Positions 7,711 to 64,000 of a stretch of 64,000 bases of DNA are shown here, in pieces. Every line of letters starts with the position of its first letter. Position 1 is the first letter of the stretch. Position numbers and translations under genes: made by a program. The notes beneath the pieces are model-generated. The model did not search any database. It was not told the DNA's origin and was given only the letters and a program-made list of their open reading frames with translations. The DNA comes from Pseudomonadota bacterium (GTDB lineage Bacteria > Pseudomonadota > Alphaproteobacteria > Micavibrionales > UBA2020). The stretch is from contig JAJZVA010000002.1 in the NCBI GenBank assembly GCA_021845905.1, positions 76,577 to 140,576 on the forward strand, written 5' to 3'.

Positions 7711-10122
7711 TTATATCCGCAGCACGCCGCCGATGCCCTTGACCGCAGTGACGATCTTGCTGCCCATGGCGGAAATCTCCTCGTCGGTGAGGGTTTTCTC
7801 GACCGGTTGCAAGGTCACGGCAACGCCGACCGATTTCTTGCCGTCTTCGACGCCTTTTCCCGTGTAGATGTCGAAGATTTCCACATCGGCGATGAGTTTC
7901 CTGTCGGCGGACGCCACGGCGCGGACGAGCTTGTCCGCCTCCAGCGCCGCATCGACGATGAAGGCGAAGTCGCGGCTGACCGGCTGGAACGGCGAGGGGA
8001 CGAGAAGCTCCTTGCGCGGGCCTTTGTCTTTCACGGGCGGCAGGGCTTCGAGAAAGATCTCGAAACCGGCGAAAGGTTCGTCGCGCTTCAGCGTTTCCAG
8101 CACCGCGGGGTGGATTTCGCCGAAGTGCGCCAGCACCGTCTGCCCGAGGCGCAAGGATCCCGCGCGTCCCGGATGATACCAGTCGGGCGCATCGCGGGCG
8201 ATGTTCAGGCTATTGGTATTGACGGCGCAGGCGGCGAGCGCGGCGAGCGCGTCCGCCTTGACGTCGAGCGCGTCTGCGGCGCGCGCGGGCCGCGACCAGT
8301 GGCGCTTCTCGGCGTTGCCGCAGCGGATCCCCGCGGCGACGACCGGCTGGCCGTCGTGCGCGGGGGAATTGTAGATCCTGCCGATCTCGAACAGCGCCGC
8401 GTCGGTAAGGCCGCGGTCGGCGTTTTTCCCCGCCGCGTCGATCAGGTTGGGCAGGATGGAAGGGCGCATGTGCGAGAGATCGGCGCTGATCGGGTTGACC
8501 AGCGTCAGCGCCTGCTTGTCGCGGCCCGCGCTTGCGCCGAAAAGGTCCGCCTTCGCGCTTTCCATGAAAGACCATGTCACCGTCTCATAAAGACCGCGCG
8601 CGGCCAGCGCGCGCTTCGTCGCGGCGGCGCGTTTCTGCAGCGGCGCGGGCGCGGGCATTTTCTCGCCCGCGGCGCGGGTCACGGCGACGGCGGGGATGTT
8701 GTCGTAGCCGTCGATGCGCAGGATTTCCTCGACGATGTCCGCGACGCCCGCAACGTCGTGCCGCCAGCCCGGGGTGCGCGCGTTCCAGCCGACGAGCCTG
8801 AAGCCGAGCGCGGTCAGTATCTCCTTCTGCCGCGCTTCGGGAAGATCGCGCCCGCCGAGGGTTTTGAGCTTCTCCGGCTTGTAGGCGATGGCGCGGGCGT
8901 TGTCGGGCGCGGCGCCGGCGGCGAAGACCTCGGAAGGGTTGCCGCCGCAGAGATCCAGCACCATGCGCGTCGCCAGTTCCATGCCGTCTTTCGTGAAGCC
9001 GGGGTCGACGCCGCGCTCGAAACGGTAGCGCGCGTCGCTGTCGATTTGCAGTTTCTGCCCGGTCTTCGCGACCGTCGCGGGGTCGAACCAGGCGCATTCG
9101 ATGTAGACGTTCCTGGTGTTTCCGTCGACGGCGGTGGAGGCCCCGCCCATCACGCCGCCGAGGCCGATGACGCGCCCGCCCGCGCTGCCGGCGGCGCCTT
9201 CGCCTTCGTCGCAGACGACGATCATGCCGTCGTCGAGCGCGTAGGTCTTGTCGTTCAGCGCGGCGCATTCCTCGCCTTTTTTCGAGAGGCGCACGTGGAT
9301 GTTGCCCCTGAGCTTGTCGGCGTCGAAGACGTGCAGGGGGCGGCAGAGGCCGATGGAGAAATAATTGGTGATGTCGACCAGCGCGGAGATGGGTTTTTGC
9401 CCGACGGCCTTGAGGCGTTTTTGCAGCCATTCGGGCGACGCGCCGTTTTTGACGTCCCTGATATGCCGCCCGAGGAACAGCGGACAGGTCTTCATGTCCT
9501 TGAGCGCGACGGAGACGGGATTTTTGCAAAGTCCGGCGACGGCTTCGGTGTCGAGCGGCTTCAGGGTTCCGATGCCGGTCGCGGCGAGATCGCGCGCGAT
9601 GCCGTAAACGCCCGCGCAATCGCCGCGGTTGGGGGTGAGGTTGATTTCGATCACCGGATCGGTCAGCCCCAATGCCGCGGCGGCGGGGCTGCCGGTCGCG
9701 GCGTCTTCCGGCAGTTCGATGATGCCGTTATGTTCGTCGGAGAGGAGAAGCTCGCGCTCCGAGCACATCATGCCGTTCGATTCCTGCCCGCGGATATTGG
9801 CCTTTTTGAGCGTGACGCCGAGGCCGGGGATATGGCTGCCCGCGGGCGCGAAGACGCCCTTCATCCCCGCGCGCGCGTTGGGCGCGCCGCAGACGACCTT
9901 GAGCCGTTCCGCGCCGGTATCGACGACGAGGCATTGCAGCTTGTCGGCGTCGGGGTGTTTTTCCGCCGCGACGACATGGCCGACGACGAAGCCCTTCAGC
10001 GCCGATGCGGGATCTTCGATATGTTCGACCTCGAGGCCGATGGCGGTCAGCTTCGCGGAGATTTCGTCGAGCGTGGCGTCGGTTTCAAGATGCTCCTTGA
10101 GCCAGGAGAGGGTGAATTTCAT
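7711..10122 (-). CDS. pheT: phenylalanine--tRNA ligase beta subunit
   Basis: 803 aa; MKFTLSWLKEHLETDATLDEI start, tRNA-binding, B3/4 and B5 regions colinear. Confidence 0.95.
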   Translation of the reverse strand: MKFTLSWLKEHLETDATLDEISAKLTAIGLEVEHIEDPASALKGFVVGHVVAAEKHPDADKLQCLVVDTGAERLKVVCGAPNARAGMKGVFAPAGSHIPGLGVTLKKANIRGQESNGMMCSERELLLSDEHNGIIELPEDAATGSPAAAALGLTDPVIEINLTPNRGDCAGVYGIARDLAATGIGTLKPLDTEAVAGLCKNPVSVALKDMKTCPLFLGRHIRDVKNGASPEWLQKRLKAVGQKPISALVDITNYFSIGLCRPLHVFDADKLRGNIHVRLSKKGEECAALNDKTYALDDGMIVVCDEGEGAAGSAGGRVIGLGGVMGGASTAVDGNTRNVYIECAWFDPATVAKTGQKLQIDSDARYRFERGVDPGFTKDGMELATRMVLDLCGGNPSEVFAAGAAPDNARAIAYKPEKLKTLGGRDLPEARQKEILTALGFRLVGWNARTPGWRHDVAGVADIVEEILRIDGYDNIPAVAVTRAAGEKMPAPAPLQKRAAATKRALAARGLYETVTWSFMESAKADLFGASAGRDKQALTLVNPISADLSHMRPSILPNLIDAAGKNADRGLTDAALFEIGRIYNSPAHDGQPVVAAGIRCGNAEKRHWSRPARAADALDVKADALAALAACAVNTNSLNIARDAPDWYHPGRAGSLRLGQTVLAHFGEIHPAVLETLKRDEPFAGFEIFLEALPPVKDKGPRKELLVPSPFQPVSRDFAFIVDAALEADKLVRAVASADRKLIADVEIFDIYTGKGVEDGKKSVGVAVTLQPVEKTLTDEEISAMGSKIVTAVKGIGGVLRI

Positions 10123-23617: not shown

Positions 23618-24649
23618 ATGTTCGGACGCGAAGCCAGAAGAAGAAAAGAAGAACAAAGACAGCTGGAACAAAGGAAAGAAAACCTGCTGGCCGCGGCGCG
23701 GAACAACGATACCGCCGGCGTGGTGAAATATTTCATGCGCCGCCCGGTTGTGTTTGATGCCTGCCTTGCCGCCGTGGAGGCGGGTTCCGTCGATGCGCTG
23801 AAGGCTTTATTGCGGAGAAACCTGGGTTTTGACTTTTCGGAATTCAGAGACCAGGACGTTCTGAAAGCAAAGCGTCTCGTCAATGCAGCGCGCGGCTCCG
23901 ATAAAGCCGACGCCTTGCTCACCGTCCTTTTCGCGGCAAACGAAACAACGGAATGCGGCAAGCTGCACCAATCGACGTTCATTTGTCCTGAAATCTCCCA
24001 CGACATACTGAGATGCATCCTGCTCATGACGCCATCAACCTTCGAGACCGCCATCGACGTTATCGGCCTTGAGGATACCGACAGGTTGAAATTCATCCTC
24101 GCCTTTCTGCCGAAGGACGGCAGCGGGCAGGGCGCGCTTGACAAGGCGCTGAGCGTTTCCGCTGAAAGAAACGACGTTGAAAAAGCGCAAATGCTCCTCG
24201 ACAAGGGCGCGAACGCCAATCATGCCGAGGCGCAGGCGTTGCAAAACGCGGCGATGGCCGGTCATATGGACATGGTCTGTCTGTTGTTGCTGCATGTCGA
24301 TCTTCTGCTCTACGGCAACGACGTCTCGGCGCAGGTCGAGCATGCCCATCCCGACCTCGCGAAGCTGATCGCCGACGCGACCGCGATTTGCTTCCAGGAA
24401 GAAGAAAGCCCCTTTGTCGCGCTCAATAAAAACATTCTGGAGGAGCGGCAAACGCTCTCCGGCGGCAAAACGCTGACCACGATATTCAATTTCGAGACAC
24501 GGCAGCAGCATAACGCCATCGAAACGCCGCAGGGAACGGAGAAAATGACCACCGTCAACTTCAAGGATATCGATGCCGGCGTCCTTGAAAAAATGCGCCG
24601 CAAACTCGACGGACTCAACGCTGCAAAACGCCTCGTCAACAAACCTTAA
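23618..24649 (+). CDS. ankyrin-repeat-like hypothetical protein, paralog A1
   Basis: 343 aa; MFGREARRRKEEQRQLEQRKE charged N-terminus; ANK-like ..AERNDVEKAQMLLDKGANANHAEAQALQNAAMAGHMDMVCLLL..; conserved C-terminal module ..TLTTIFNFETRQQHNAI..VNFKDIDAGVLEKMRRK. Confidence 0.7.
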   Translation: MFGREARRRKEEQRQLEQRKENLLAAARNNDTAGVVKYFMRRPVVFDACLAAVEAGSVDALKALLRRNLGFDFSEFRDQDVLKAKRLVNAARGSDKADALLTVLFAANETTECGKLHQSTFICPEISHDILRCILLMTPSTFETAIDVIGLEDTDRLKFILAFLPKDGSGQGALDKALSVSAERNDVEKAQMLLDKGANANHAEAQALQNAAMAGHMDMVCLLLLHVDLLLYGNDVSAQVEHAHPDLAKLIADATAICFQEEESPFVALNKNILEERQTLSGGKTLTTIFNFETRQQHNAIETPQGTEKMTTVNFKDIDAGVLEKMRRKLDGLNAAKRLVNKP

Positions 24650-24662
24650 AGGAGAAAAAACC

Positions 24663-25709
24663 ATGTTTGGACGCGAAAGAAAAGCGCGGGAGCGCGCGGA
24701 AGCGGAGCGGCTGGAACAGGAGGCGCGCAAGGCGGCGGCGCGCGCCGCGGACGAGGCGCGGGCGCAAAAACAGCGCGAAGGCCTGGAGGCGGCGCTCAAG
24801 ACGGACGATCCGTCGCTGTTCGACGAGCAATATTTCGTTTTCGACGTCAGCCCGGTCAACAGAATCTACGATGCCGCGAAAAGAGCCATTGCGCAAAACG
24901 CGCCGAAAGTCTTTCATGCGCTGACCCACGGAAAGTTTCCGAACTACTACAGCTCCTTCACCTTCGGGAGCACATGGGAGGAATCAAAACAGAACGTCCG
25001 CCTGTTGCTCGCCGACATATCCGCATCCGCGGAGCCGGGCCTCTTCTGGGAGATCATGCGCGACGGCAATGAAAAATCGACCGTGGATAAACCACGGCTT
25101 GCTTCCGCGGAGTTTCTGACCCCCGCCGCGTCGCCGGAATTCATCCATGACCAGCTCCTCAAGAATCCGGAGCTCTTCACGACCTGCCTTCGCGACATCG
25201 GCGTTCGGGATCCGGAAAAGCTGGAGCTTATCCTTGCCTTCGCGCCGAAAGACGACAGCGCGCACATCGCGCTGGTCGCGGCGGTGGTGGAGGTCTCTCG
25301 AAATGAGGACGCGCTTGATCAGCTCGCGGCGCTTTTGCCGCATATCGATCTGGCGCGGCACGGCGCGCACATGGCGGCGCTGGTCAGGTTTTTCAACCCC
25401 GAGATGGCAAAGCTGATTTCGGATGCGACGGAGATCATGCGCTGCACCCCTGAGGCGGAAGAAACCGTCCATCCGGCGCAGGAGAGCGACATACACGTTG
25501 AAAAGCAGGCCATTCCCGGCGGCGGCACGCTGACGGCCATCTTCAACTTCACGCTCAAACAGCAGCATAACGTCATCAGGATGCCGGGCGAAGACCCTGT
25601 CGCGACCACCGTCCAGTTCAGGGACATCGACAAGGGCGTTCTCGCCGCGATGCGCCGAAAATACGACGCCGCGCAAAAACCGCCGGAAAGCCCGCCGCCC
25701 GCGCCTTAA
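24663..25709 (+). CDS. hypothetical protein, paralog A2 of 23618-24649
   Basis: 348 aa from ATG 24663 (RBS aaaggag); MFGRERKARERAEAERLEQE..; shares LILAFAPKD.., AKLISDATEI.., ..TLTAIFNFTLKQQHNVI..VQFRDIDKGVLAAMRRK with A1. Confidence 0.7.
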   Translation: MFGRERKARERAEAERLEQEARKAAARAADEARAQKQREGLEAALKTDDPSLFDEQYFVFDVSPVNRIYDAAKRAIAQNAPKVFHALTHGKFPNYYSSFTFGSTWEESKQNVRLLLADISASAEPGLFWEIMRDGNEKSTVDKPRLASAEFLTPAASPEFIHDQLLKNPELFTTCLRDIGVRDPEKLELILAFAPKDDSAHIALVAAVVEVSRNEDALDQLAALLPHIDLARHGAHMAALVRFFNPEMAKLISDATEIMRCTPEAEETVHPAQESDIHVEKQAIPGGGTLTAIFNFTLKQQHNVIRMPGEDPVATTVQFRDIDKGVLAAMRRKYDAAQKPPESPPPAP

Positions 25710-30726: not shown

Positions 30727-31206
30727 TTACGTCTTTTTGCTGTCGCGGTGAGTGACGTGCTGGAATCCCGCCGCAAAAGAGAAAAGCCGCTCTTTCAGAA
30801 ACGCGGGTTTTAAATCCGTTTCGCGCAGGTCATCGGAAGAAAACCATGAGCTGGTGATGGGCGTGCCGTTTGTGTCGGTCTTGGGCACGGCAAGCGGTTC
30901 GGGCAGCGCGGCGCGGTAGAAAACCATCAGTTCGTGAAAGTCCCGCCGTTCGCTGACAAAGAAATTTTCGACGACGCCCGCGAGTTCAAGGCTGTCGGGC
31001 GCGCAGTGCAGCTCCTCGCCGATTTCGCGTATGACGGCTTCTTCCGATGTTTCGCCGAAAGCAACGCGTCCGCCCGGCATGAACCAGTAATCATGCGCGT
31101 CATGTTGCTGCAGAAGGATTTTCCCTGCGCGGAAAACGAGGAAAGCCACGCGGATATTGAGCTTGCCCCACGGCGTTTGCAGCGTGAGGTCTTTGCTTTC
31201 CGGCAT
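30727..31206 (-). CDS. NUDIX hydrolase
   Basis: 159 aa from ATG 31206; Nudix box GGRVAFGETSEEAVIREIGEELH; start overlaps upstream stop by 1 nt (TGATG). Confidence 0.8.
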   Translation of the reverse strand: MPESKDLTLQTPWGKLNIRVAFLVFRAGKILLQQHDAHDYWFMPGGRVAFGETSEEAVIREIGEELHCAPDSLELAGVVENFFVSERRDFHELMVFYRAALPEPLAVPKTDTNGTPITSSWFSSDDLRETDLKPAFLKERLFSFAAGFQHVTHRDSKKT

Positions 31207-32411
31207 CACGCCGTCTCTTTGAACAATTCCCGCCCGATCAGCATGCGGCGGATCTCGCTCGTGCCCGCGCCGATCTCGTAGAGTTTCGCGTCGCGCAATA
31301 ATCTGCCCGCCGGATAATCGTTGGTATAGCCGTTGCCGCCGAGGCACTGGATGGCGTCGAGCGCCATCGCGGTGGCTTTTTCGGCGGAATACAAAATCGC
31401 GCCCGCCGCGTCCTTGCGGGTCACTTCGCCGCGGTCGCATGCCTTGCCGACGGCGTAAACGTAAGCGCGGGCGGTGTTCATCATCACATACATGTCGGCG
31501 AGTTTGCCCTGCATGAGCTGGAATTCGCCGATGGATTGGCCGAACTGCTTGCGCTCGTGCAAATAAGGCAACACGATATCGAGGCAGGCCTGCATGATGC
31601 CGAGCGGCCCGCCGGACAAGACGGCGCGTTCGTAATCGAGCCCGCTCATCAGCACTTTCACGCCCTTGCCGACCTCGCCCAGCACGTTTTCCTCCGGCAC
31701 TTCGCAGTTATCGAACACCAGCTCGCAGGTGTTGGAGCCGCGCATGCCGAGCTTGTCGAGCTTCTGCGCGGTGGAAAAACCCTTGAATGTGTTCTCGACC
31801 AGAAACGCGGTGATGCCTTTGCTCCCCGCCGCGGGATCCGTCTTGGCGTAGACCACCAGCGTCGCCGCGTCGGGGCCGTTGGTGATCCACATCTTGTTGC
31901 CGTTGAGGACATAGCGGTCGCCCTTTTTCTCTGCCTTGAGTTTCATCGAAACGACGTCGGAGCCCGCGCCCGGCTCGCTCATGGCGAGCGCGCCGATCTT
32001 TTTGCCGGCGCAGAGGTCGGGCAGGTATTTTTGTTTTTGCGCCGGTGTGCCGTTGAGGTTGATCTGGTTGACGCAGAGGTTGGAAAACGCGCCGTAAGAG
32101 AGGCCGATGCTGGCGGAGGCGCGTGAAATTTCCTCCATCGCAACGATGTGCTCGATGTAGCCCATGCCGGTGCCGCCGTATTCCGGATCGGCGGTGAGCC
32201 CGAGCAATCCCAGTCTGCCCATTTCAGGCCAGAGGTCGTTGGGGAAGGCGTTGTCGTGGTCGACCTGCGCCGCGATCGGCGCGATCTCCTTCTGCGCGAA
32301 ATCCTGCACTGTGGCGCGCAAGGCGTCCGCCGTTTCGCCGAGGTCGAAGTTCAGCGACGGAAAATCCTGCGCCTTGGGAACATAAGTTTCTTTCTTTTGA
32401 GCCTGTGTCAT
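31206..32411 (-). CDS. ivd: acyl-CoA dehydrogenase, isovaleryl-CoA dehydrogenase-like
   Basis: 401 aa; ..[27 protein letters not shown].., C-terminal ..[19 protein letters not shown]. Confidence 0.88.
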
Positions 32412-50155: not shown

Positions 50156-51094
50156 ATGAACGGAATCAAAGCGACTCTCAGAATCGGCACAAGAAGCAGC
50201 CCGCTCGCGCTCGCGCAGGTGGATTTGCTGATCGGCGCGGTGCAGAAGGCGCATCCCGGCGTCGCGTTCGAGATCGTGAAGATCACCACCAGCGGCGACA
50301 GGATTCAGGACCGCGCGCTCAGCGAAGCGGGCGGCAAGGGCCTCTTCACCAAGGAGATCGAGGAGGCGCTTTTGGCGGGAACCATCGACTGCGCCGTCCA
50401 CTCGATGAAGGACATGCCGACGAAGCTGCCGGACGGCCTCGTCATTCCCTGCCTGTTGCCGCGCGAGGATCCGCGCGACGCGTTTTTCTCCCGCCATGGC
50501 GGGTCGCTCGACGATCTGCCCGAAGGATCCGTCGTCGGCACCTCGAGCCTGCGCCGTCAGGCGATCCTTCTCGCCCGCCGTCCGGATTTGAAGATCGCCC
50601 TGCTGCGCGGCAACGTCGGCACAAGATTGCGAAAGCTCGAAGAGGGCGTCGTCGATGCAACATTGCTCGCCGTCGCGGGCCTGAAGCGCCTCGGGCAGGA
50701 GCATCTGATCAGGAACATTCTCGAACCCGACGTGATGCTGCCCGCCGTGGCGCAGGGCGCGGTCGGCATCGAGGTGCGCGGGAACGATGCGCGCGCGCGG
50801 GAGATTCTCTCGTCGGTGCATTGCCATGTGACGGAGTTGCGCGTGACGGCGGAGCGGGCGTTTCTCGACGCGATGGACGGCTCTTGCAAGACGCCGCTCG
50901 CCGCGCTGTTGCAAGAGCCGGACGCGCAGGGCCGCGCGCGTTTCGACGTGCTGGTGGCGCGCCCCGACGGCAGCGACGTCAAGACCGCGTCCGTCATGGC
51001 GGAGGTGCCGGATGTGAAAGCGGCGGACGCGCTCGGGCGCAAGGCCGGACGCGATTTGAAAGCGCGTCTGCCGGAAGGCTATCTGGCGGCCTGA
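50156..51094 (+). CDS. hemC: hydroxymethylbilane synthase (porphobilinogen deaminase)
   Basis: 312 aa; ..LRIGTRSSPLALAQ.., ..TSGD.., ..AVHSMKDMPT.., ..GTSSLRRQ.., ..GSCKTP.. Confidence 0.95.
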   Translation: MNGIKATLRIGTRSSPLALAQVDLLIGAVQKAHPGVAFEIVKITTSGDRIQDRALSEAGGKGLFTKEIEEALLAGTIDCAVHSMKDMPTKLPDGLVIPCLLPREDPRDAFFSRHGGSLDDLPEGSVVGTSSLRRQAILLARRPDLKIALLRGNVGTRLRKLEEGVVDATLLAVAGLKRLGQEHLIRNILEPDVMLPAVAQGAVGIEVRGNDARAREILSSVHCHVTELRVTAERAFLDAMDGSCKTPLAALLQEPDAQGRARFDVLVARPDGSDVKTASVMAEVPDVKAADALGRKAGRDLKARLPEGYLAA

Positions 51095-51745: not shown

Positions 51746-52390
51746 TTAAAGATGCGGCTTTCCGGCGGACGGCGCGGCGGCGGATTTTTCCCGCAACTGC
51801 GCTTCAATCCGCGCCAGGGTTTTCGGCGCGAGCGCCCAGCCGGGAGATGACGCGGCGTTGAAGGTGGCGCATAAGTTTTTATAAGCTTCCGTCTCCACCA
51901 TGGAGGTGTAAGGGCGATGGCCTTCCGCCGCGCAGGCGAGAAAATAGGCGATGTCGTCAGGGTTAAAGCCGCTCGCGACGCCCTGAATCAGAGTGTAATG
52001 CGCGTAAGGGTCTTTTTGCGTGTCGCAGTTTATCGCGCCAAGGTCGGGATTGCGCGCCACAAGCGCGCAGGCGACTTCCGCCATGCGGCGGCTGAAGCTG
52101 TCGCGCGAGATGTCATTGCGATGGCGCATAAGCAAGGCATATGTTTCGAGATCCTGTGGAGATACGCTCTCCGGCAGGATGTAATGCCGCGCGATGCCTG
52201 AAAGGCCATGGCGTTTCTCAAAAATTGCGGCGGGCTGATGAAAGCGGATGTCCGAAATCTTCAACGTTACCGCCGTGAGTGGCGGCAGGACTTCACTGTA
52301 GGAAAGGCCTGTTTTCGCGTCGACGCAAGACATTCCGCGTCTTTTGAAATAAGCGAGCGTTGCGGAGATGTCGCGGGCGATGTTGTCCAT
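51746..52390 (-). CDS. hypothetical protein
   Basis: 214-aa ORF divergent from the deamidase-like gene; no motif recognised. Confidence 0.5.
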   Translation of the reverse strand: MDNIARDISATLAYFKRRGMSCVDAKTGLSYSEVLPPLTAVTLKISDIRFHQPAAIFEKRHGLSGIARHYILPESVSPQDLETYALLMRHRNDISRDSFSRRMAEVACALVARNPDLGAINCDTQKDPYAHYTLIQGVASGFNPDDIAYFLACAAEGHRPYTSMVETEAYKNLCATFNAASSPGWALAPKTLARIEAQLREKSAAAPSAGKPHL

Positions 52391-52588: not shown

Positions 52589-53344
52589 ATGGCAGAAGAT
52601 TTGGACAACGTTTTAGATTCGGACAACGCTTTCGACCCGAAAGCCTTCGGCGGGCATTTGAAGGGATACTTTCAGGACAATGCCTGCCGCGCCCTGTCTT
52701 TCTTCGACGCGATGGCGCTTTTCGACCGGCTGGCCGACCGCCCCGACATCGCTTTCGGTTATGTCCGCGATGGATGCTACGCCCGCGCGCATCTGATGTG
52801 CCTTGAGATGGAGGCGCAAGGTTTGGCGCCGCTCAAGGCGTGGGCGCTTGAATATATCTATAAAGGCAACCCTCCGCCCGTCACGATGCCGAATGGAAAG
52901 ATTGCGCGGTGGGACTGGCACGTCGCGCCCGCCCTGCCGGTGCGCATGGCGGAGGGCGATGTGCGGATGATGGTGTTCGATCCCGGTCTGTTCGACGGGC
53001 CGGTGCCGCCCGAGGAGTGGGCGCGGCTCATTCACGTCACGTCTGAAAAGATCAAAATTCTCCCGTTCGGCGCGCCGCCGCTGGATGACAACGGAGATTA
53101 TATCCCCGACAACTCTTCTTTTACGCATCGGGAAGACATTCTCGACCATGCCCGCGCCACGATGGAAAAATACCTTTCTTTCCAGACCGCGCCGCGGCGC
53201 ACCGTCTTTGCTTCGGCGGCGCGGAAACAGGCGTGCGATCAAAAGCCGATGTCTTTCTCGATGCAGGGCAAAACCTGGGTTTCTCTGGACGCCACGGCGA
53301 CAGGGCCCGCCGTCTCGCCGCATCTTCCGCCGTGCGGGCCTTGA
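52589..53344 (+). CDS. protein-glutamine glutaminase-like papain-fold deamidase (Cys-His-Asp), no signal peptide
   Basis: 251 aa; ..RDGCYARAHLM.. (Cys), ..ARWDWHVAPAL.. (His), ..MMVFDPGLFDGPV.. (Asp) match, as I recall it, the C-x-x-RAH-x-M / W-x-YHVA / IDPSLF-x-GPV blocks of Chryseobacterium protein-glutaminase. Confidence 0.65.
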   Translation: MAEDLDNVLDSDNAFDPKAFGGHLKGYFQDNACRALSFFDAMALFDRLADRPDIAFGYVRDGCYARAHLMCLEMEAQGLAPLKAWALEYIYKGNPPPVTMPNGKIARWDWHVAPALPVRMAEGDVRMMVFDPGLFDGPVPPEEWARLIHVTSEKIKILPFGAPPLDDNGDYIPDNSSFTHREDILDHARATMEKYLSFQTAPRRTVFASAARKQACDQKPMSFSMQGKTWVSLDATATGPAVSPHLPPCGP

Positions 53345-53571: not shown

Positions 53572-53637
53572 GCGCGCACAGCTTCTGTTATAATGCCGCG
53601 AGAAGAAGATATTTCACCGGGGTTCCAGAAAACATCC

Positions 53638-55617
53638 ATGCGCACGGTTCTCGTTACACGCCCGCAGCCGGTCGCGGATGAATTGGCCGAAAGAATCCGC
53701 GCGGGCGGGCATCGGGCCTATGTCGCGCCGATGATGGAATATGTCGCCGTCGCCGCCGCTTTCCCCGATCTTGCCGGTTATCAGGCGCTGATCTTCACCA
53801 GCAGGGAGGGCGTGCGGCATTTTTGCGACATGTCGGCGGCGCGGGACCTGCCCGTGCTCGCCGTCGGCGACGCGACTGCCGCCGCCGCCGCGCAGGCGGG
53901 CTTCGCGCGCATCTTTTCCGCCAAGGGCAACGGCGCCGCCGTCGCCGCGCTGGCGAAAGAGGAAGCGCCCGGGCTGGGCCTCAAAAAGATCCTCCATCCC
54001 TGCAGCGCCGACACGCCGGATGACATTTCCGCCGCGCTCGAAAGCGCGGGCGTCGCCGTCGTGCGCCGCCCCGTCTACAAGGCGGCGCTGACGGAAAAAT
54101 TCCCCGCCGAAGCGGCCGCCGCGCTCCGCGCCGGCCTTGTCGACACGGTCATGCTCTTTTCCACCCGCACGGCGGTCAATTTCGTCCGTCTGCTGCGTCA
54201 GAACGGCCTTGACGGACAAAGCCCGGAGATGGAGGCGATTTGCATCAGCAAGGCCGTTGCGGAGCCGCTTCACGCCCTGCGCTGGCGCGGCGTGCGCGTC
54301 GCGTCAAAGCCGCAGCTCGGCGCGGTGATGCAGGCGCTTGCCGCGGCCGACAAGGCCGACCCCGCCGACCGCCGCCGCAAGACCGACCGCCGCGCGCGTG
54401 ACGCGCAACATGACGCCGACGGCAATATCATCGCCAAAGGCTATGCCGGGCCCGACCGCCGCCGCGCCGCGCGCCGCGCGCACGAGCAAATGCAAAGACA
54501 GCGCATCTGGCAGGAGAAGATGAAATTCGTCAACCGCTCGATGCTGACCTTCGCCTTCATGTTCGCCGCCATCGTCCTCGCCGGGGTTTTCCTCATGGCG
54601 CCGGAATACGCGCGCATCGACCATGTGCCGCTGGCGGGCGGCGGGCAGTCGGTGATGGGGCGGATCGGCGGGATGGTCGGCCATGGCCTCGACACGGTTG
54701 AGAGCGCGGTCGGGCTTTCGCCCGCGCAACCTGCCGCGCCGCCGCCGAAGGATTACACCCAGGTGCTCTACAATCTTTCCGTCCTGCGGCGGCAGGATGG
54801 CGACGCGGCGGCGGAGCGGGCGCTCGCCCGCCTGCAGGCGGCGATGGCCGCGCCCGACGTGCAGACGCCGCAGGACATCGCCCGCGTCGTCGCCGGCCAG
54901 CGTCGGCAAAGCGGCGCGCTCAACAGCCTGTTCGGCTCTCTTGGCGGAGACGACGTCGCGGCGGGCGCGATGCTGCTCGCGCTCAACGAGTTCAGGGGCG
55001 ACGTCAACAGTGGACGCCCTTATGCCGAGGATCTTGCCGTCCTGCAGAAATTCACCGGCAACGACCCGCGCATGAACCGCGCGCTCAGCCGCCTTGCGCC
55101 CTATGCCGCGACCGGCGTGCTCAACCGCCGCGCGCTGCAGGCGGAACTCGGCGGACTGCTGGTCGACGTCATCAAGGCGGAGATGACGGGGCAGGACATT
55201 TCCGTTCAGCAGGACGCGCAGGCGCGCTATGCGCGGCTGGTGAAGGCGGGCAATCTCGCCGCCGTGCAGGGGAGTTCATCCGCCGCGACCGTGGCGCGGG
55301 CGCAGATTTTGCTCGACGAGGGCAACGTCGCCGGCGCGACCGAGCTGCTTGAAACGCTGCAAGGCCCCGCCGCGGGCGTGGTGCAGCCGTGGATGCAGCA
55401 GGCGACGGCCTACAACGCCACCAGCACTGCGGGCGACAGCCTTACGCAAGGCATTCTTTATAATCTCTCGTCGGTGGGGACGACCTCGGCGCAGACGGTG
55501 ATGGAGGAAATCAAGGAGAGCCTCGGCATGGCGACCGTGCCCTACGTGTCGCCGGCCTTGACCGTCGGCCAGCGCGGCGGCGGCGATACCGTCGCGCCGA
55601 CGTCGCTTTTCCCCTGA
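53638..55617 (+). CDS. hemD: uroporphyrinogen-III synthase (HemD) fused in frame to a membrane-anchored Mic60/mitofilin-like (HemX-like) region
   Basis: 659 aa from ATG 53638; N-terminal ~240 aa HemD-like (..VLVTRPQP..IFTSREGV..); Arg-rich linker; TM MLTFAFMFAAIVLAGVFLMA; C-terminus ..ARAQILLDEGNVAGATELLETLQGPAAGVVQPWMQQA.. Confidence 0.75.
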   Translation: MRTVLVTRPQPVADELAERIRAGGHRAYVAPMMEYVAVAAAFPDLAGYQALIFTSREGVRHFCDMSAARDLPVLAVGDATAAAAAQAGFARIFSAKGNGAAVAALAKEEAPGLGLKKILHPCSADTPDDISAALESAGVAVVRRPVYKAALTEKFPAEAAAALRAGLVDTVMLFSTRTAVNFVRLLRQNGLDGQSPEMEAICISKAVAEPLHALRWRGVRVASKPQLGAVMQALAAADKADPADRRRKTDRRARDAQHDADGNIIAKGYAGPDRRRAARRAHEQMQRQRIWQEKMKFVNRSMLTFAFMFAAIVLAGVFLMAPEYARIDHVPLAGGGQSVMGRIGGMVGHGLDTVESAVGLSPAQPAAPPPKDYTQVLYNLSVLRRQDGDAAAERALARLQAAMAAPDVQTPQDIARVVAGQRRQSGALNSLFGSLGGDDVAAGAMLLALNEFRGDVNSGRPYAEDLAVLQKFTGNDPRMNRALSRLAPYAATGVLNRRALQAELGGLLVDVIKAEMTGQDISVQQDAQARYARLVKAGNLAAVQGSSSAATVARAQILLDEGNVAGATELLETLQGPAAGVVQPWMQQATAYNATSTAGDSLTQGILYNLSSVGTTSAQTVMEEIKESLGMATVPYVSPALTVGQRGGGDTVAPTSLFP

Positions 55618-58795: not shown

Positions 58796-59794
58796 TTATT
58801 GCTTATTTTGCTTTTCACCGGCGCGGCGCGCGCGGAGCCATTTGTCGATGTCGCGCTTATGTTGCTGTAATGTCTTGGCAAATGTGCTGCCGCCGGAGCC
58901 GTTGGCGACGAAATAGAAATCGTCCGTTTGCGCGGGATTCAAGGCGGCTTCCAATGCCGCGACGCCCGGATTGCAGATCGCGCCGGGCGGCAGCCCCGCG
59001 ACGGCATAGGTGTTGTAGGGCGATTTTATTTTAAGGTCGGCGGCGGTGAGCGAACGCCCGAGCGGGTCTTGCCCCTGCGTCAGCGCGAAAATGACCGTCG
59101 GGTCGGATTGCAGCGGGATGCCGCGTTTCAGGCGGTTGTAAAAGACGCCGGCGATGCGCGCGCGGTCGGAGGCCCTGCCGGTTTCCTTCTCGACGATCGA
59201 GGCGAGGATCACGGCCTGCTGTTCGGTCACGGGCAGATTGGGCGCGCGTTTGGTCCACAGCGCGGCCATTTCCTCCTTCATCGCCGCCTGCATGCGGCGG
59301 ATGAGGCTCATGCGCGTGTCGCCGTAGGAAAAATCGTAAGTATTGGGCAGGAGGCTGCCCTCGGGTGGCATGGGCGCGATGGCGCCGGCAAGCGCTTTTT
59401 CATTGTCGAGAATGCGCACGATGTCCGGCGAGGTCAGCCCTTCCGGGATGGTGACTTTGCGCTGGTAGGTTTTGCCGCTTTGCAGCAGCGTGACGAGATC
59501 GAGGATGCTGATATGGGCGGGGATGTCGTATTCCCCCGCTTTCAGCGGCGCGATGCGGCCTTGCAGCCGCGCTTCGATGCGAAACGCGCGGGCGCTGCCG
59601 ATGACGTCTTCTTTTTCCAGCGCGCGCGCCATGACGCCTGTCGCCGTGCCGGGCGGAATATACACAAGTTTTTGCGCGGGCAACGGCCCTTGCGCGTTGA
59701 TCGCCGCGTCGAACCAGTGCGCGGCGGCGAAGACGAAAGCAAGGACGATGACGACCGCGGCGAGCAGCAGGCCTTTTACGGCGGACATTCTCAC
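58796..59794 (-). CDS. mltG: endolytic murein transglycosylase (YceG-like)
   Basis: 332 aa; N-terminal TM; ..ASIVEKETG...R..IAGVFYNRL..GIPLQSDPTV.., ..YNTY...GLPPGAICNPG. Confidence 0.92.
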   Translation of the reverse strand: MRMSAVKGLLLAAVVIVLAFVFAAAHWFDAAINAQGPLPAQKLVYIPPGTATGVMARALEKEDVIGSARAFRIEARLQGRIAPLKAGEYDIPAHISILDLVTLLQSGKTYQRKVTIPEGLTSPDIVRILDNEKALAGAIAPMPPEGSLLPNTYDFSYGDTRMSLIRRMQAAMKEEMAALWTKRAPNLPVTEQQAVILASIVEKETGRASDRARIAGVFYNRLKRGIPLQSDPTVIFALTQGQDPLGRSLTAADLKIKSPYNTYAVAGLPPGAICNPGVAALEAALNPAQTDDFYFVANGSGGSTFAKTLQQHKRDIDKWLRARRAGEKQNKQ

Positions 59795-61080
59795 GGGGCG
59801 GCCTTGAAGATCAGGCAGGCATTGGTGCCCCCGAAGCCGAAGGAGTTGGAGAGCGCGGTTTTGATGTTGCGTTCTTTGGCCTTGAGCGGCACGAGGTCCA
59901 GAAATTGTCCGTTTCCGAGGGCCGCGACGTCCGACGGGTCTTCAAGGTTGAGCGTCGGCGGGATGACGCCGGTTTGCAGCGCTTTGATGCTGTAAATCGC
60001 CTCGACCGCGCCCGCCGCGCCGAGCAGGTGGCCGATGGCGGATTTGGTCGAAGAGATGCTGATGTTTTTGGTGTTGCCGCCGAACAGGCGCTTGATCGCG
60101 GTCAGCTCGATGTCGTCGCCGAGCGGCGTGGAGGTGCCGTGGGCGTTGATGTAGTCGATGTCTTCGGGGTTGATGGCCGCGCGCCGCAACGCCGCCTTCA
60201 TCGCCCTGTACCCGCCGTCGCCGTCGTCGGCGGGCGAGGTGACGTGGTGCGCGTCGCCCGACATGCCGTAGCCGGTCAGTTCGGCGTAAATCTTCGCGCC
60301 GCGCTTCCTGGCGTGTTCGTATTCTTCCAAAACAACGCAGCCCGCGCCTTCGCCGATGACAAACCCGTCTCTATCTTTGTCGAACGGGCGCGAGGCCTTT
60401 TCGGGCGCGTCGTTGAATCCGGTGGAGAGCGCGCGGCAGGCGGCAAATCCGCCCACGCCGATGCGGCAGATCGCCGCTTCCGCGCCGCCCGCGACCATCA
60501 CGTCGGCGTCATCGAGCATGATCAGCCGCGCGGCATCGCCGAGCGCGTGCGATCCGGTGGCGCAGGCGGTGACGACCGCGTGGTTCGGGCCTTTGAACTT
60601 GTATTTGATCGAGACGTTGCCGGAGATGAGGTTGATCAGCGAAGAAGGAATAAAAAAGGGAGAAATGCGTCTTGGCCCTTTCTCCTGCATCGTGACGGTG
60701 GTGTTCTGGATGTTGACGAGGCCGCCGATGCCCGAGCCGATCAAAACGCCGGTGCGGCAGCGCTCTTCCTCGCCCTCCGGTTTCCAGCCGCTGTCCTCGA
60801 CCGCGTCGACCGCCGCCACGTATCCGTAGTGGATGAAGCGGTCCATCTTCTTTTGTTCTTTGGGGTCGATGTAGGCGTTGATGTCGAGAGAACCGGCGCC
60901 CGCATCCGCTTCTCCGGCCAGCGGCACTTCGCCCGCGATTTGCGACGGCAGGTCTGACGCGTCAAAGGTGCGGATCTTGCGCAGGCCCGACTTGCCGGAC
61001 GTGAGCGCGGCCCAGTTGTGGTCCGCCCCCAAACCCAGCGGGCTGACGATGCCGATGCCTGTGACGACGACGCGCCTCAT
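59791..61080 (-). CDS. fabF: beta-ketoacyl-ACP synthase II
   Basis: 429 aa; MRRVVVTGIGIVSPLG.., active-site ..VVTACATGSHA.., ..NAHGTSTP.., ..NSFGFGGTNA. Confidence 0.96.
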   Translation of the reverse strand: MRRVVVTGIGIVSPLGLGADHNWAALTSGKSGLRKIRTFDASDLPSQIAGEVPLAGEADAGAGSLDINAYIDPKEQKKMDRFIHYGYVAAVDAVEDSGWKPEGEEERCRTGVLIGSGIGGLVNIQNTTVTMQEKGPRRISPFFIPSSLINLISGNVSIKYKFKGPNHAVVTACATGSHALGDAARLIMLDDADVMVAGGAEAAICRIGVGGFAACRALSTGFNDAPEKASRPFDKDRDGFVIGEGAGCVVLEEYEHARKRGAKIYAELTGYGMSGDAHHVTSPADDGDGGYRAMKAALRRAAINPEDIDYINAHGTSTPLGDDIELTAIKRLFGGNTKNISISSTKSAIGHLLGAAGAVEAIYSIKALQTGVIPPTLNLEDPSDVAALGNGQFLDLVPLKAKERNIKTALSNSFGFGGTNACLIFKAAP

Positions 61081-61179: not shown

Positions 61180-61422
61180 TTAGGCGGCTTTCGCGTTCTG
61201 CTGGATGAAGGAGATCGCGTCCTTCACCGTCTGGATCTTCTCGGCGGCGTCGTCGGGGATTTCGATGCCGAATTCCTCTTCGAAGGCCATGACCAGCTCG
61301 ACCGTGTCGAGGCTGTCGGCGCCGAGATCGTCGATGAAGCTGGCGCTGTCGGTAACCTTGGCGGCGTCAACGCCCAGATGTTCGACGACGATTTTCTTGA
61401 CGCGTTCGCTGATATCGCTCAT
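61180..61422 (-). CDS. acpP: acyl carrier protein
   Basis: 80 aa; phosphopantetheine site [13 protein letters not shown]. Confidence 0.96.
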
Positions 61423-61574
61423 GTATCTTTACCCTTTGTGGTTTACGTTAAAGCCTGTTTTCTTGTATTGGAAAACCGATAGCATACTCGTTTGCGCTTG
61501 GCAAACCTAGAATGTTAATTTTCATAAAATATAAATTCAGGATTGGCGCGGCTTGGAAGCTTTTTAACAAGACG

Positions 61575-62669
61575 TCATTTGAAAAGCAGGGCGCGGATCT
61601 TTTTCCAGCCGCGCGACGCGGCGGGTTTCGGCGACGGATTTTCCTTGAGCGTGCGTTTTTTATCCATTGCGACGGAGGCATCGAGGATAAATCCGCTGTC
61701 TTTTTCGTGTTGCGCAAGTTCTTTTTGCAGGACGTTGAACTGGGCGAAAGCCGTGGATGCGGGATCGTCAGCGATTATTTTCGCGATCTTTTCCTGTATA
61801 TCGGCGTCATCAAGGAGGCGTCTGCCCGCGCGGTAGATGTCGTCGTTATCCTTGTGCGCGCGCATGGCGCGTGCAACTGCTTCCAGAGTTTCGGCGAATT
61901 CTTCGGGCGTGGCTTTTTTTTGATAGAGTTTCTTCGTTTCCCCATAAATCTCGCCAATTTTTTCCACGGTCGCTTCGTTCAGCGCGTAATCCTCCGCGAT
62001 GCGCGCCGCCAGCTCGGCCGTTTGTTGTAGCGAGAGAGATGCGATCTCGATTTCGCCTTCATCCACGATGCGGGCGATTTTTTCGATGACGGCGGTGGTG
62101 TCGTGGATGGGTGGATTTTCTAACGCAACGCATCCTGCATGAACCCATTTCATATGGGGTATCATATCGGTTTCATCGCCGAAGCGCTGGATATGGCGGA
62201 GCGCCGCAAAGGCGTCTGCCACGCATTCGTTGTGATGGGCGGAATCACTGATCTGCTCAAGAATGTATTCGTCGTTTTCGAAATCTATATATATTCCCCT
62301 GCCTCCTCTTACAAGAAGGTGGCCCATCTCGTGGTCGAGAGAATGAAAATAATCCATTTCGCTGCTATAATGGGCGTAAGGAGAATAAAAATTTTTTTTC
62401 TCTCCAAGGGTGATGATATTCAGCAGTTGCTCTCCCGCATCGAATGCGCTGATCGAGGCGGCGGCATGATCACCTAACCGTTCATGTTTTTTCCGAACGG
62501 CCTCTTTGAACTCCTCCGGAAAAGCGGAGAGCAGCGGGGTCGTCTCCGGCGCGACATAGACCAGCTTTTTCTCGAACGCCATCACTAATCCCGCCATCCG
62601 CGCGGGGAAGGCGTCGTGATATTCCGCCGCGGCGTTGAAAATTTCTCTCAAGGGGAACGCGGCGGTCAC
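61575..62669 (-). CDS. hypothetical HExxH protein, paralog H1 (putative zincin-like)
   Basis: 364 aa; HEMGH; ..ECVADAFAALRHIQRFG.., ..PPIHDTTAV.., ..DIYRAGRR.., ..AQHEKDSGFILD..DKKR.. then basic tail. Confidence 0.65.
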   Translation of the reverse strand: MTAAFPLREIFNAAAEYHDAFPARMAGLVMAFEKKLVYVAPETTPLLSAFPEEFKEAVRKKHERLGDHAAASISAFDAGEQLLNIITLGEKKNFYSPYAHYSSEMDYFHSLDHEMGHLLVRGGRGIYIDFENDEYILEQISDSAHHNECVADAFAALRHIQRFGDETDMIPHMKWVHAGCVALENPPIHDTTAVIEKIARIVDEGEIEIASLSLQQTAELAARIAEDYALNEATVEKIGEIYGETKKLYQKKATPEEFAETLEAVARAMRAHKDNDDIYRAGRRLLDDADIQEKIAKIIADDPASTAFAQFNVLQKELAQHEKDSGFILDASVAMDKKRTLKENPSPKPAASRGWKKIRALLFK

Positions 62670-63661
62670 GGCGCGTTCCTTTCCGGCTTCGGCGCGGGCG
62701 GCGCTTTTCCTGCGGCGCGTTTTTTGTCCACAGCGAGGGCGGGATCGAGGATGAAGCCCGTTTCCTCCTCGTGCTGCGCCATCTTTCTGCGCAGGTTATA
62801 AAGCACGGCGTCGTGGGGCAGTTTGGCGGCGATCATGTCTTTCGTCTTTTTGCATTCGAAACAAAGCCTGCCCGCGCGGTAGATGTCTTCGTCATGCCTG
62901 TTGTCGAGCATGACTTCGGCGATGGTCTTGAAGATATCGCGCAGTTTTCCGCTGTCGGAGAGCGGCCGTTTGTCGGTTGCGACGATCCAGTTGACCGGCG
63001 CGAAAGCATCGCTGATCTTGCCGAGCGTCGCGTCGTCGAGCGCGTAGGCCGCGGCGATTTTGGCAGCGAGCGCGGCGGTTTTCTCCAGCGAGAGCCCGCG
63101 GATGTCGATCTTGCCGCCATCGTGCATGTTGCGGATTTTTTGCACCACGGCGCTGGTGTAATGGATCGGCGGGGGCGTTTCGAAAACCGCATGATGCGCC
63201 AGCTCCGCCGCGGCGTCTTCCGTCATCCCGCCGAAGCGCTGGATATGGCGCAAGGTCGCGAAGGCGTCGGCGGCGCATTCGCCCAGATGCGGCGAGGCTC
63301 CCAGCCCGTTTTCGACAATGAAGTGCCCGGCCTCATGTTCGGCGTCCTGTATCTGGCGGCGGATGTCGCGCTCTTGCGCGCCGGGTTTAAGATCTTTCAT
63401 CGCGATGTGGTTCACGGGAACGAAGCCGATGTAATCCCGCGCGGCGGCGGCGCAGGAGCCGCGCGCCTTCATCCAGTCGAGGCGTTCCTCGATTTTCTTT
63501 TCGGTCAGAGAGGGGTTTTTGGCGATAAAGTCTGCGATTTCCGGCGCGATGAAAATCCGTTCCGTTCCGAGCGTGACGAAGAGATTGGCGAGTTTTTCAG
63601 GAAAGGCCGCGCGGTAAGCGGCGGCGTTGAAGGCTTCCTTCAAAGAAAGCTTTCCGGTCAT
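62666..63661 (-). CDS. hypothetical HExxH protein, paralog H2
   Basis: 331 aa; HEAGH; ..ECAADAFATLRHIQRFG.., ..PPIHYTSAV.., ..DIYRAGRL.., ..AQHEEETGFILD..DKKR..; stop overlaps H1 start (ATGA). Confidence 0.65.
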   Translation of the reverse strand: MTGKLSLKEAFNAAAYRAAFPEKLANLFVTLGTERIFIAPEIADFIAKNPSLTEKKIEERLDWMKARGSCAAAARDYIGFVPVNHIAMKDLKPGAQERDIRRQIQDAEHEAGHFIVENGLGASPHLGECAADAFATLRHIQRFGGMTEDAAAELAHHAVFETPPPIHYTSAVVQKIRNMHDGGKIDIRGLSLEKTAALAAKIAAAYALDDATLGKISDAFAPVNWIVATDKRPLSDSGKLRDIFKTIAEVMLDNRHDEDIYRAGRLCFECKKTKDMIAAKLPHDAVLYNLRRKMAQHEEETGFILDPALAVDKKRAAGKAPPAPKPERNAP

Positions 63662-64000
63662 GGCCTGCCCCCTCCCGGCGCGGCGGGCGGTTTGCGCGCG
63701 GCCTGTTTTTCATGCGCCGCGCCGCCGTCAAGCGTGAAGCCGGTTTCCTTTTCGTGTTGCGCCATGCGGGCGGCCATGGCGCGGAAGGCGGGGTCGCGCT
63801 CGAGCATTTTTCTCGCCAGGGCCCTGACGTCGTCGCGGGCGAGAAACTGGCTGCCCGCGCGGTAGATGTCCGCATCGTTTCTATGTTCCAGCATGATGCC
63901 GGCGATGTCGCGGATGACGTCTGCGCCGCTGCCCGCGCTTTCTCCGCGCAGCACGGGACGGACGGGCGCATAGGCGGCGGCGATTTTTTCCAGCGTCGCG
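63658..64000 (-). CDS. hypothetical protein, paralog H3 (C-terminal part; 5' end beyond window)
   Basis: Frame stays open to the window edge (..ATLEKIAAAYAPV.. aligns with H2 ..ATLGKISDAFAPV..); ..DIYRAGSQ.., ..AQHEKETGFTLD..; stop overlaps H2 start. Confidence 0.6.
   Translation of the reverse strand, partial: ATLEKIAAAYAPVRPVLRGESAGSGADVIRDIAGIMLEHRNDADIYRAGSQFLARDDVRALARKMLERDPAFRAMAARMAQHEKETGFTLDGGAAHEKQAARKPPAAPGGGRP

Follow-up and report, generated by a model that had tools for sequence, protein, structure and literature searches.

Peptidases of the ImmA/IrrE type are intracellular, site-specific enzymes that cut a partner repressor, and CapP, RmrA, spr1629 and IrrE presumably all belong to this type (M78/COG2856). 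The HExxH motif also occurs, again in proteins that lack Sec signals, in NleC and NleD, the signal-less zincin effectors of pathogens. A tandem array of HExxH genes is found at the end of a 64,000-nucleotide stretch of alphaproteobacterial DNA (positions 76,577 to 140,576 of contig JAJZVA010000002.1, assembly GCA_021845905.1; hereafter the window), and the catalytic core of its products is nearest to that of the intracellular, site-specific ImmA/IrrE/CapP (M78) proteases. The array consists of four genes, H4-H3-H2-H1, that sit between fabG and acpP, the window holding the 3' three-quarters of the operon. On the best-supported reading, drawn from sequence, the H proteins represent an unnamed, lineage-restricted family of soluble gluzincin-type zinc metallopeptidases with two lobes and an M78-like core, which would bind zinc and cleave protein. 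The family is real and uncharacterised, and so far nothing sets it outside known protease biology.

A four-gene array between fabG and acpP

The features of the array are listed below, in window coordinates unless another contig is named.

61575 to 62669, minus strand: H1, an open reading frame (ORF) of 364 residues with a GTG start, the last gene of the array; match to the family hidden Markov model (HMM) at E 4.7e-94
62319 to 62333, minus strand: HEMGH codons of H1 (H113, E114, H117), predicted to supply two zinc ligands and the general base; column identity 0.97 in a 74-sequence alignment
62214 to 62228, minus strand: E148-C-V-A-D152 (ExxxD) of H1, the Glu being the predicted third zinc ligand, on the next helix; invariant in 74 sequences
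61578 to 61643, minus strand: C-terminal tail of H1 (approximately residues 343 to 364), predicted to be disordered and rich in Pro and Lys; predicted local distance difference test score (pLDDT) below 50 at residues 347 to 357, net charge of the last 25 residues +6
62666 to 63661, minus strand: H2, a paralog of 331 residues with an ATG start; family HMM E 2.2e-95; identical to public protein P0004
63323 to 63337, minus strand: HEAGH codons of H2 (residues 109 to 113)
63266 to 63280, minus strand: E128-C-A-A-D132 (ExxxD) of H2
63658 to 64000, minus strand: C-terminal 113 residues of H3 (339 residues in all), in frame from 63999 to 63658, the remainder lying past the window edge
62666 to 62684, minus strand: H2/H1 junction, with a GTGA stop/start overlap (62669 to 62666) and a Shine-Dalgarno (SD)-like motif, GGAAAGGAA, 6 nucleotides before the GTG
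63658 to 63676, minus strand: H3/H2 junction, with an ATGA overlap (63661 to 63658) and an SD-like motif, GGGAGGGGG, 6 nucleotides before the ATG
Contig L001, 7990 to 8988, outside the window: H4, 332 residues; the full H3 (339 residues) lies at 8985 to 10004 of the same contig
61423 to 61574, minus strand: AT-rich spacer of 152 nucleotides between H1 and acpP
61180 to 61422, minus strand: acpP, given for context and outside the family, then fabF (59791 to 61080) and mltG/YceG (58796 to 59794)

A preliminary description made from the window alone had reported three consecutive minus-strand ORFs joined by 4-nucleotide overlaps, and the ORF listing, the GTGA and ATGA junctions and their SD-like motifs bear it out. 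The ordered sequence blocks that it had seen in the proteins were likewise all recovered; H1, H2 and the truncated H3 are 32-42% identical to one another, and H1 and H2, at 32% identity, match each other in BLASTP at E 3e-41, well above chance. Its count of at least three copies became four when the locus was extended with contig L001 (GCA_027431775.1), which reproduces the terminal 11 kb of the window with 0 mismatches. On L001 the genes rpsF-rpsR-rplI-dnaB-alr lie on one strand and are followed by orf324, fabD, an EamA gene, fabG, H4, H3, H2, H1, acpP, fabF and mltG. Thus the claim that the array fills the position of fabD-fabG was wrong: both genes are present directly upstream (fabD-EamA-fabG), and the array stands between fabG and acpP rather than replacing them. 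Assemblies in NCBI, ENA and Logan supply 24 contigs that encode H2, and, one cut contig aside, the same four genes are present at each place shown. Because the array is found on independent contigs from several sources, it is real, and an assembly artefact can be rejected.

The H4/H3 junction on L001 is also a 4-nucleotide overlap, so that all three junctions of the array are coupled. The SD-like motifs of H1, H2 and H3 (window 62676-62684 and 63668-63676; L001 approximately 8970-8984) fall within codons for the Gly/Pro/Lys-rich tail of the upstream paralog, and translational coupling, not protein function, may therefore constrain part of the composition of the tails. A promoter-like site, TTAACA-16-CATATT, is present in the AT-rich spacer between fabG and H4, and no terminator-like site was found downstream of H1 on the coding strand of the H1-acpP spacer.

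H1 is a compositional outlier, with a GC content of 0.53 and a third-position GC content (GC3) of 0.61, the GC3 of its neighbours, H2-H4 included, being 0.77-0.87. A similar composition (GC 0.53, GC3 0.59) is seen in orf324 (L001 4647-5621, outside the window and upstream of fabD), which encodes a Glu/Gln-rich protein of 324 residues without a Pfam match. The composition of these two genes could reflect more recent acquisition or different constraints.

A probable metallopeptidase family with an M78-like core

When 1.84 billion cluster representatives were searched exhaustively with a profile, 729 relatives emerged at E<=1e-3, of which 542 reached E<=1e-10; most have 300-370 residues, and where their sources name them at all, the name is 'hypothetical protein'. 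Of 139 full-length representatives, 136 have the HExxH motif. E148 does not vary within the 74-sequence alignment, where conservation is at least 90% for H113, E114, G116, H117, A151 and G164. Conservation is highest on the helix that carries the Glu (E148-x-x-x-D152; 0.53), followed by the HExxH helix (0.37), with values of 0.14-0.31 elsewhere. A profile restricted to the core aligns both motifs residue for residue with HELTH...NEAISD of the Bacillus cereus neutral protease (PDB 1npc), at a non-significant E of 0.17.

Searches of H1-H4 against Pfam, NCBIfam, PHROGs and PADLOC gave nothing significant, and phmmer and three profile searches of PDB sequences gave no significant match. The Pfam M78 model (PF06114) did not reach its gathering threshold, matching one of the 74 members at E 0.043 and none of H1-H3 at E<=1. 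Nor was there a significant match to the thermolysin family (M4), for which 1npc was the best candidate (E 0.17-0.31); Peptidase_M4 is not among the Pfam matches shown. The 74-sequence profile, used in a second word-indexed search, brought up no relative whose Pfam annotation would bridge the family to a known one, and ten long family members carry no additional Pfam domain, so that fusion of the family to known domains was rejected. The preliminary description had suggested zincin-like metallohydrolases assignable to no named peptidase family; that suggestion is supported, there being no confident match to a housekeeping family among these searches and no general loss of HExxH among homologues.

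Below significance, the matches fall on a few groups. Among PADLOC models, peptidase_U41 (PDLC03011) matches 12 of the 74 members (best 1.2e-5) and capP matches eight (best 2.9e-4), together with several RmrA models and, in two members, Lit; all are short, sub-threshold matches confined to the core, where they cover a strand and the two helices that bear HExxH and the Glu. Weak Pfam matches comprise DUF4344 (four of 74, best 0.0033), M48 (two of 74), M78 and Reprolysin_3; a further long member, P0102, matches DUF4344 at 0.0022, the scores lying well below the gathering value (18 against 29.6 bits). The spr1629 antitoxin model of NCBIfam weakly matches two of the 74, and a Foldseek search of BFVD returned IrrE-like phage proteins (E approximately 0.03, probability 0.77-0.95). 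The H proteins are nonetheless treated as a separate family and not as members of M78, because they have no adjacent helix-turn-helix (HTH) partner, possess a different C-terminal lobe and failed all curated thresholds.

Predicted structure, tail and location

AlphaFold2 predicts a two-lobed structure for H1 (pLDDT 81.7, predicted template modelling score 0.84). The N-lobe, of alpha/beta type, would combine two beta-hairpins with a backing helix, the helix that bears HExxH (residues 103-119) and the Glu helix (144-163) with E148, and the C-lobe of approximately 170 helical residues, less conserved than the active-site helices and followed by the disordered, Pro-rich basic tail. A 16-residue beta-hairpin between the two active-site helices is particular to H1. 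The N-lobe of H2 was modelled with a pLDDT of 78.7. Neither the full model nor an N-lobe model gave a significant match, or any zincin, in Foldseek searches of the PDB.

The absence of a signal peptide and of transmembrane helices, noted at the outset, stands: Kyte-Doolittle maxima over 19 residues are 0.94-1.35, which indicates that there is no transmembrane helix, and the N-termini are not signal-like, as judged without a dedicated signal-peptide predictor. The last 25 residues of family members have an average net charge of +2.9 and contain 11.6% Pro, the corresponding values of the protein body being -0.2 and 3.5%. No RTX repeats are present in the family. The tail of H1 ends in GWKKIRALLFK, an amphipathic basic/aromatic helix, and other members end in RFEQFKKRLL, GWKNWFRLAA or IKKITKWF; the membrane-targeting helices of MinD and FtsA resemble such ends. 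Among 46 other proteins of the window, used as a control, C-termini average +1.4 and reach +3 or more in 15. Proteins of the same genome thus often have basic C-termini, and the tail hints at a signal for export or targeting but does not identify one; as strong evidence of secretion it was rejected.

Distribution, genomic context and selection

Scanning one genome per species recovered 27 loci, all in uncultured alphaproteobacterial metagenome-assembled genomes (MAGs), with labels that include Micavibrio and 'Bdellovibrionales', the order under which NCBI files Micavibrio. A literature search for the MAG and run accessions yielded nothing. The FabF of the window is 79% identical to that of a Micavibrio sp. 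MAG; among the nearest labelled FabF sequences, no other for which an identity was computed carries a genus name. Tandem arrays are usual, with six copies at one locus (L009) and two to four elsewhere, and in the REEB87 MAG at least five copies are spread over three loci. In the clade of the window, the fabG/acpP site holds one copy (L037), two (L034) or four. Between fabG and its two-copy array, L034 also has two small ORFs on the opposite strand (8818-9847, minus strand; 173 and 164 residues, no Pfam match), and the content of the fabG/acpP site therefore differs among close relatives.

The position of the array differs by lineage, and its surroundings are core genes in every lineage examined. 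Approximately 15 Micavibrio-like genomes carry family copies within the leucine-catabolism (liu) cluster. At these loci (L011, L013, L015, L017 and L021-L032; for example L013 1871-15073) two to four copies lie on the opposite strand amid genes for the alpha and beta subunits of methylcrotonyl-CoA carboxylase, enoyl-CoA hydratase and 3-hydroxy-3-methylglutaryl-CoA lyase, together with a conserved ORF of 375-400 residues without a Pfam match and a fast-evolving ORF of 205 residues. Other sites are upstream of hemB and dcw genes (L009), between ppiD and prs (L007) and between a class II aminoacyl-tRNA synthetase gene and ffh (L042). Neighbourhood clustering yielded no partner gene conserved across lineages, only lineage-specific synteny (liu in approximately 15 genomes, fab in the clade of the window), and a conserved functional partner was rejected on that ground. 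Searches of plasmids, phages and IMG/VR found no homologs, and for this reason a mobile-element or phage origin was rejected as well.

One sub-lineage carries the gene in a syntenic cluster (L039 1051-11526 and L040 1663-12045). Genes for a trypsin-like protease with a Sec signal and for an FHA protein come first, and the HExxH gene follows, with genes for five or six ankyrin-repeat proteins on its two sides. The C-termini of the ankyrin proteins are basic and in many cases rich in Arg (net +2 to +11 over the last 30 residues), and those of the protease and the FHA protein are acidic. A short ORF directly after the HExxH gene (149 residues in L039; 179 residues, and overlapping, in L040) has an ankyrin-like look.

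Across four closely related genomes, identity is 94-99% for the neighbouring enzymes and 51-94% for the family copies. The ratio of nonsynonymous to synonymous substitution rates (dN/dS) in that related lineage is 0.13-0.23 for the family, with one pair at 0.35, and 0.03-0.07 for the neighbours: the family is under purifying selection, with constraint relaxed approximately 3-6-fold relative to its neighbours. These are therefore real, functional coding genes that evolve fast, with a gene-wide dN/dS well below 1. Between genomes of the window's own clade FabF is 91% and AcpP 95-100% identical, and positional counterparts of the family are 32-51% identical. Distinct paralog classes (famA, famB and famC, in the lineage of L011, L013, L015 and L017) are kept across related genomes.

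Proposed mechanism and alternative explanations

The explanation to which we would give the greater part of our confidence is that the H proteins are intracellular gluzincin-type endopeptidases, encoded by a coupled four-gene operon whose paralogs have diverged. His113, His117 and Glu148 would bind zinc and Glu114 would activate water, a chemistry read from the motifs, and the helical C-lobe would probably close the cleft and select the substrate. The proteins would be cytoplasmic, possibly tethered to the membrane, and would cut protein substrates, with the paralogs having diverged toward different substrates or triggers. Intracellular action is favoured because of the M78-like core, the lack of Sec and transmembrane signals and the embedding of the arrays among core operons; it is from these features that we infer the location and the class of substrate, as we do zinc binding and proteolysis from the active-site motifs. 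Three points weigh against this explanation. A cytoplasmic location is deduced solely from the missing Sec and transmembrane signals, and export by a non-Sec route may be possible; no gene for an HTH/XRE repressor or antitoxin substrate lies beside the arrays at the loci examined; and the placement of the gene in an ankyrin cluster in one sub-lineage hints at an effector-like role.

The last point leads to a possible, if on balance unlikely, alternative, in which the proteins are effector or predation proteases exported independently of Sec, through type I or type IV-like secretion with the basic, disordered C-terminus as signal, cleaving proteins of prey or host in an arms race that amplified and diversified the genes. 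Micavibrio is an epibiotic predator (PMC3189940), and the carrier loci, all in uncultured alphaproteobacterial MAGs, are in part labelled Micavibrio. Flux in copy number (one, two or four at a single site, up to six per array, at least five at three loci of one MAG), counterparts that are 32-51% identical where FabF is 91% identical, a dN/dS 3-6 times that of the neighbours and a basic, Pro-rich tail, shared with the ankyrin-repeat proteins around the L039/L040 gene but not with the acidic Sec-signal protease and FHA protein, are what such a role would predict. Yet dN/dS over the whole gene is far less than 1, the arrays keep stable, syntenic places in housekeeping operons, and the nearest cores, those of the M78 type, belong to intracellular regulators. 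Basic C-termini are common in the genome, RTX repeats are missing, and genes for secretion systems did not turn up in the window as far as it was annotated, beside the arrays or in the flanks examined; M. aeruginosavorus is itself reported to be without type III and type IV systems (PMC3189940). The preliminary description had argued from tandem amplification and divergence to an effector, toxin or antigen family, and this is best called possible and unproven: the accelerated evolution fits, and the purifying selection, the core-gene context, the lack of visible secretion genes in the annotated regions and a tail that is only mildly unusual do not. Slightly less probable is a bolder version, in which the family is an unrecognised class of non-Sec-exported zinc proteases that Micavibrio-like, possibly predatory or host-dependent, cells deliver into prey or host, with the Pro-rich basic C-terminus, found also on ankyrin neighbours in some genomes, as the signal and tandem expansion diversifying the targets.

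Two further explanations are minor ones. The weak PADLOC matches to peptidase_U41, capP, RmrA and Lit, a cytoplasmic HExxH design of about 300 residues, and a copy-number variation and relaxed constraint that suit defence genes could all be accommodated by Lit-like abortive-infection proteases, each paralog sensing a different phage product and then cutting an essential host factor. This is very unlikely: the genes lie in no prophage, plasmid or recognisable defence island but among core metabolic neighbours, at conserved positions in approximately 15 genomes, homologs were not found in phages, plasmids or IMG/VR, and the PADLOC matches are short, core-only and sub-threshold. About equally unlikely is a single hetero-oligomeric assembly, a protease or scaffold complex with the paralogs as its subunits, in which coupled translation would fix their ratio and the amphipathic C-terminal helix of H1 would anchor the complex to the membrane. 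All three junctions are 4-nucleotide overlaps with internal SD-like motifs, the classes famA, famB and famC are kept across related genomes, and within the array the amphipathic basic/aromatic end is found on H1 only, with similar ends in other family members; but stop/start overlaps are common in bacterial operons that encode no complex, copy number ranges from one to six, and a single copy suffices at the same site in L037.

Whichever explanation holds, a family without representation in Pfam, NCBIfam or the PDB, often present in several copies per genome, gains a definition, that of a gluzincin with an M78-like core, which gives annotators a handle, and the conserved E114, H113, H117 and E148 offer experimentalists concrete target residues. 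If the proteins are intracellular, the regulatory protease design of ImmA/IrrE would be extended to a form without a repressor partner. Should they prove to be exported, they would become candidates for a part in predation or host interaction, in a lineage about whose means of killing little is understood.

Other genes of the window and related assemblies

Several other features of the locus and its relatives were recorded. The EamA-family membrane protein gene between fabD and fabG (L001 6653-7096) is of half size, encoding 147 residues, and is also found in L034 but not in the more distant L037. The plus-strand gene at window positions 53593-55617 encodes 674 residues, with an N-terminal HemD domain (uroporphyrinogen-III synthase, HEM4, E 2e-39) and, towards the C-terminus, weak similarity to Mitofilin/Mic60 (residues 556-606, E 5e-4). 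The L037 counterpart (659 residues) shows a weak HEM4 and Mitofilin combination too, and a HEM4 protein of 681 residues occupies the corresponding position in L034. The protein, which adjoins hemC (50156-51094), may be a fusion of HemD to an alphaproteobacterial Mic60. A clear Gln_deamidase_2 domain (PF18626, 'Glutaminase'; E 8e-23) is present in the 251-residue product of 52589-53344 (plus strand), next to an ORF of 214 residues (51746-52390) without a Pfam match; it was dropped as a clue to lifestyle, the Pfam description being glutaminase only. Among the housekeeping genes ispA, dxs, xseB and bacA, an ORF of 343 residues (23618-24649, plus strand) gives only faint ankyrin-repeat signals and is followed by one of 348 residues (24663-25709, plus strand) without a Pfam match.

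In assembly ERZ27237442, one contig carries two proteins identical to those of the window, PheT (803 residues, 7711-10122) and an acyl-CoA dehydrogenase (401 residues, 31206-32411), and another, from a relative with a FabF approximately 91% identical, carries a two-copy array (loci L034 and L044/L045). Two related populations thus seem to coexist in that sample.

Comparison with known systems

The likeness to ImmA, IrrE, CapP and RmrA (M78, PF06114, COG2856) is the most extensive, as both groups are soluble and signal-less and place a Glu some 15-30 residues after HExxH in an E-x-x-A-(D/N)-x-F/Y-A context. Unlike these proteins, the H family has an extra helical lobe of approximately 170 residues, a basic tail, tandem arrays and no mobile-element homologs, and, unlike ImmA/IrrE, it has no HTH/XRE repressor substrate encoded next door. 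Thermolysin-type gluzincins (M4; PDB 1npc) share the spacing HExxH-x(15-31)-ExxxD, which matches HELTH...NEAISD, and a two-lobed arrangement with a helical C-lobe, but the match is non-significant (E 0.17-0.5), and the H proteins are without signal peptide or propeptide and have a much smaller N-lobe. Lit (peptidase U49) and 'peptidase_U41' (PDLC03011), the latter being the best weak match of any library, are likewise cytoplasmic HExxH proteins of approximately 300 residues; only 40-70 residues or so match, however, and the H genes belong to the core chromosome rather than to a prophage or defence island. Similarity to DUF4344, a putative metallopeptidase family in Pfam that is itself uncharacterised, and to M48 is limited to weak matches in the HExxH region, below gathering scores. 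With NleC and NleD the H proteins have in common an HExxH motif and the absence of Sec signals, and share no detectable sequence or profile similarity.

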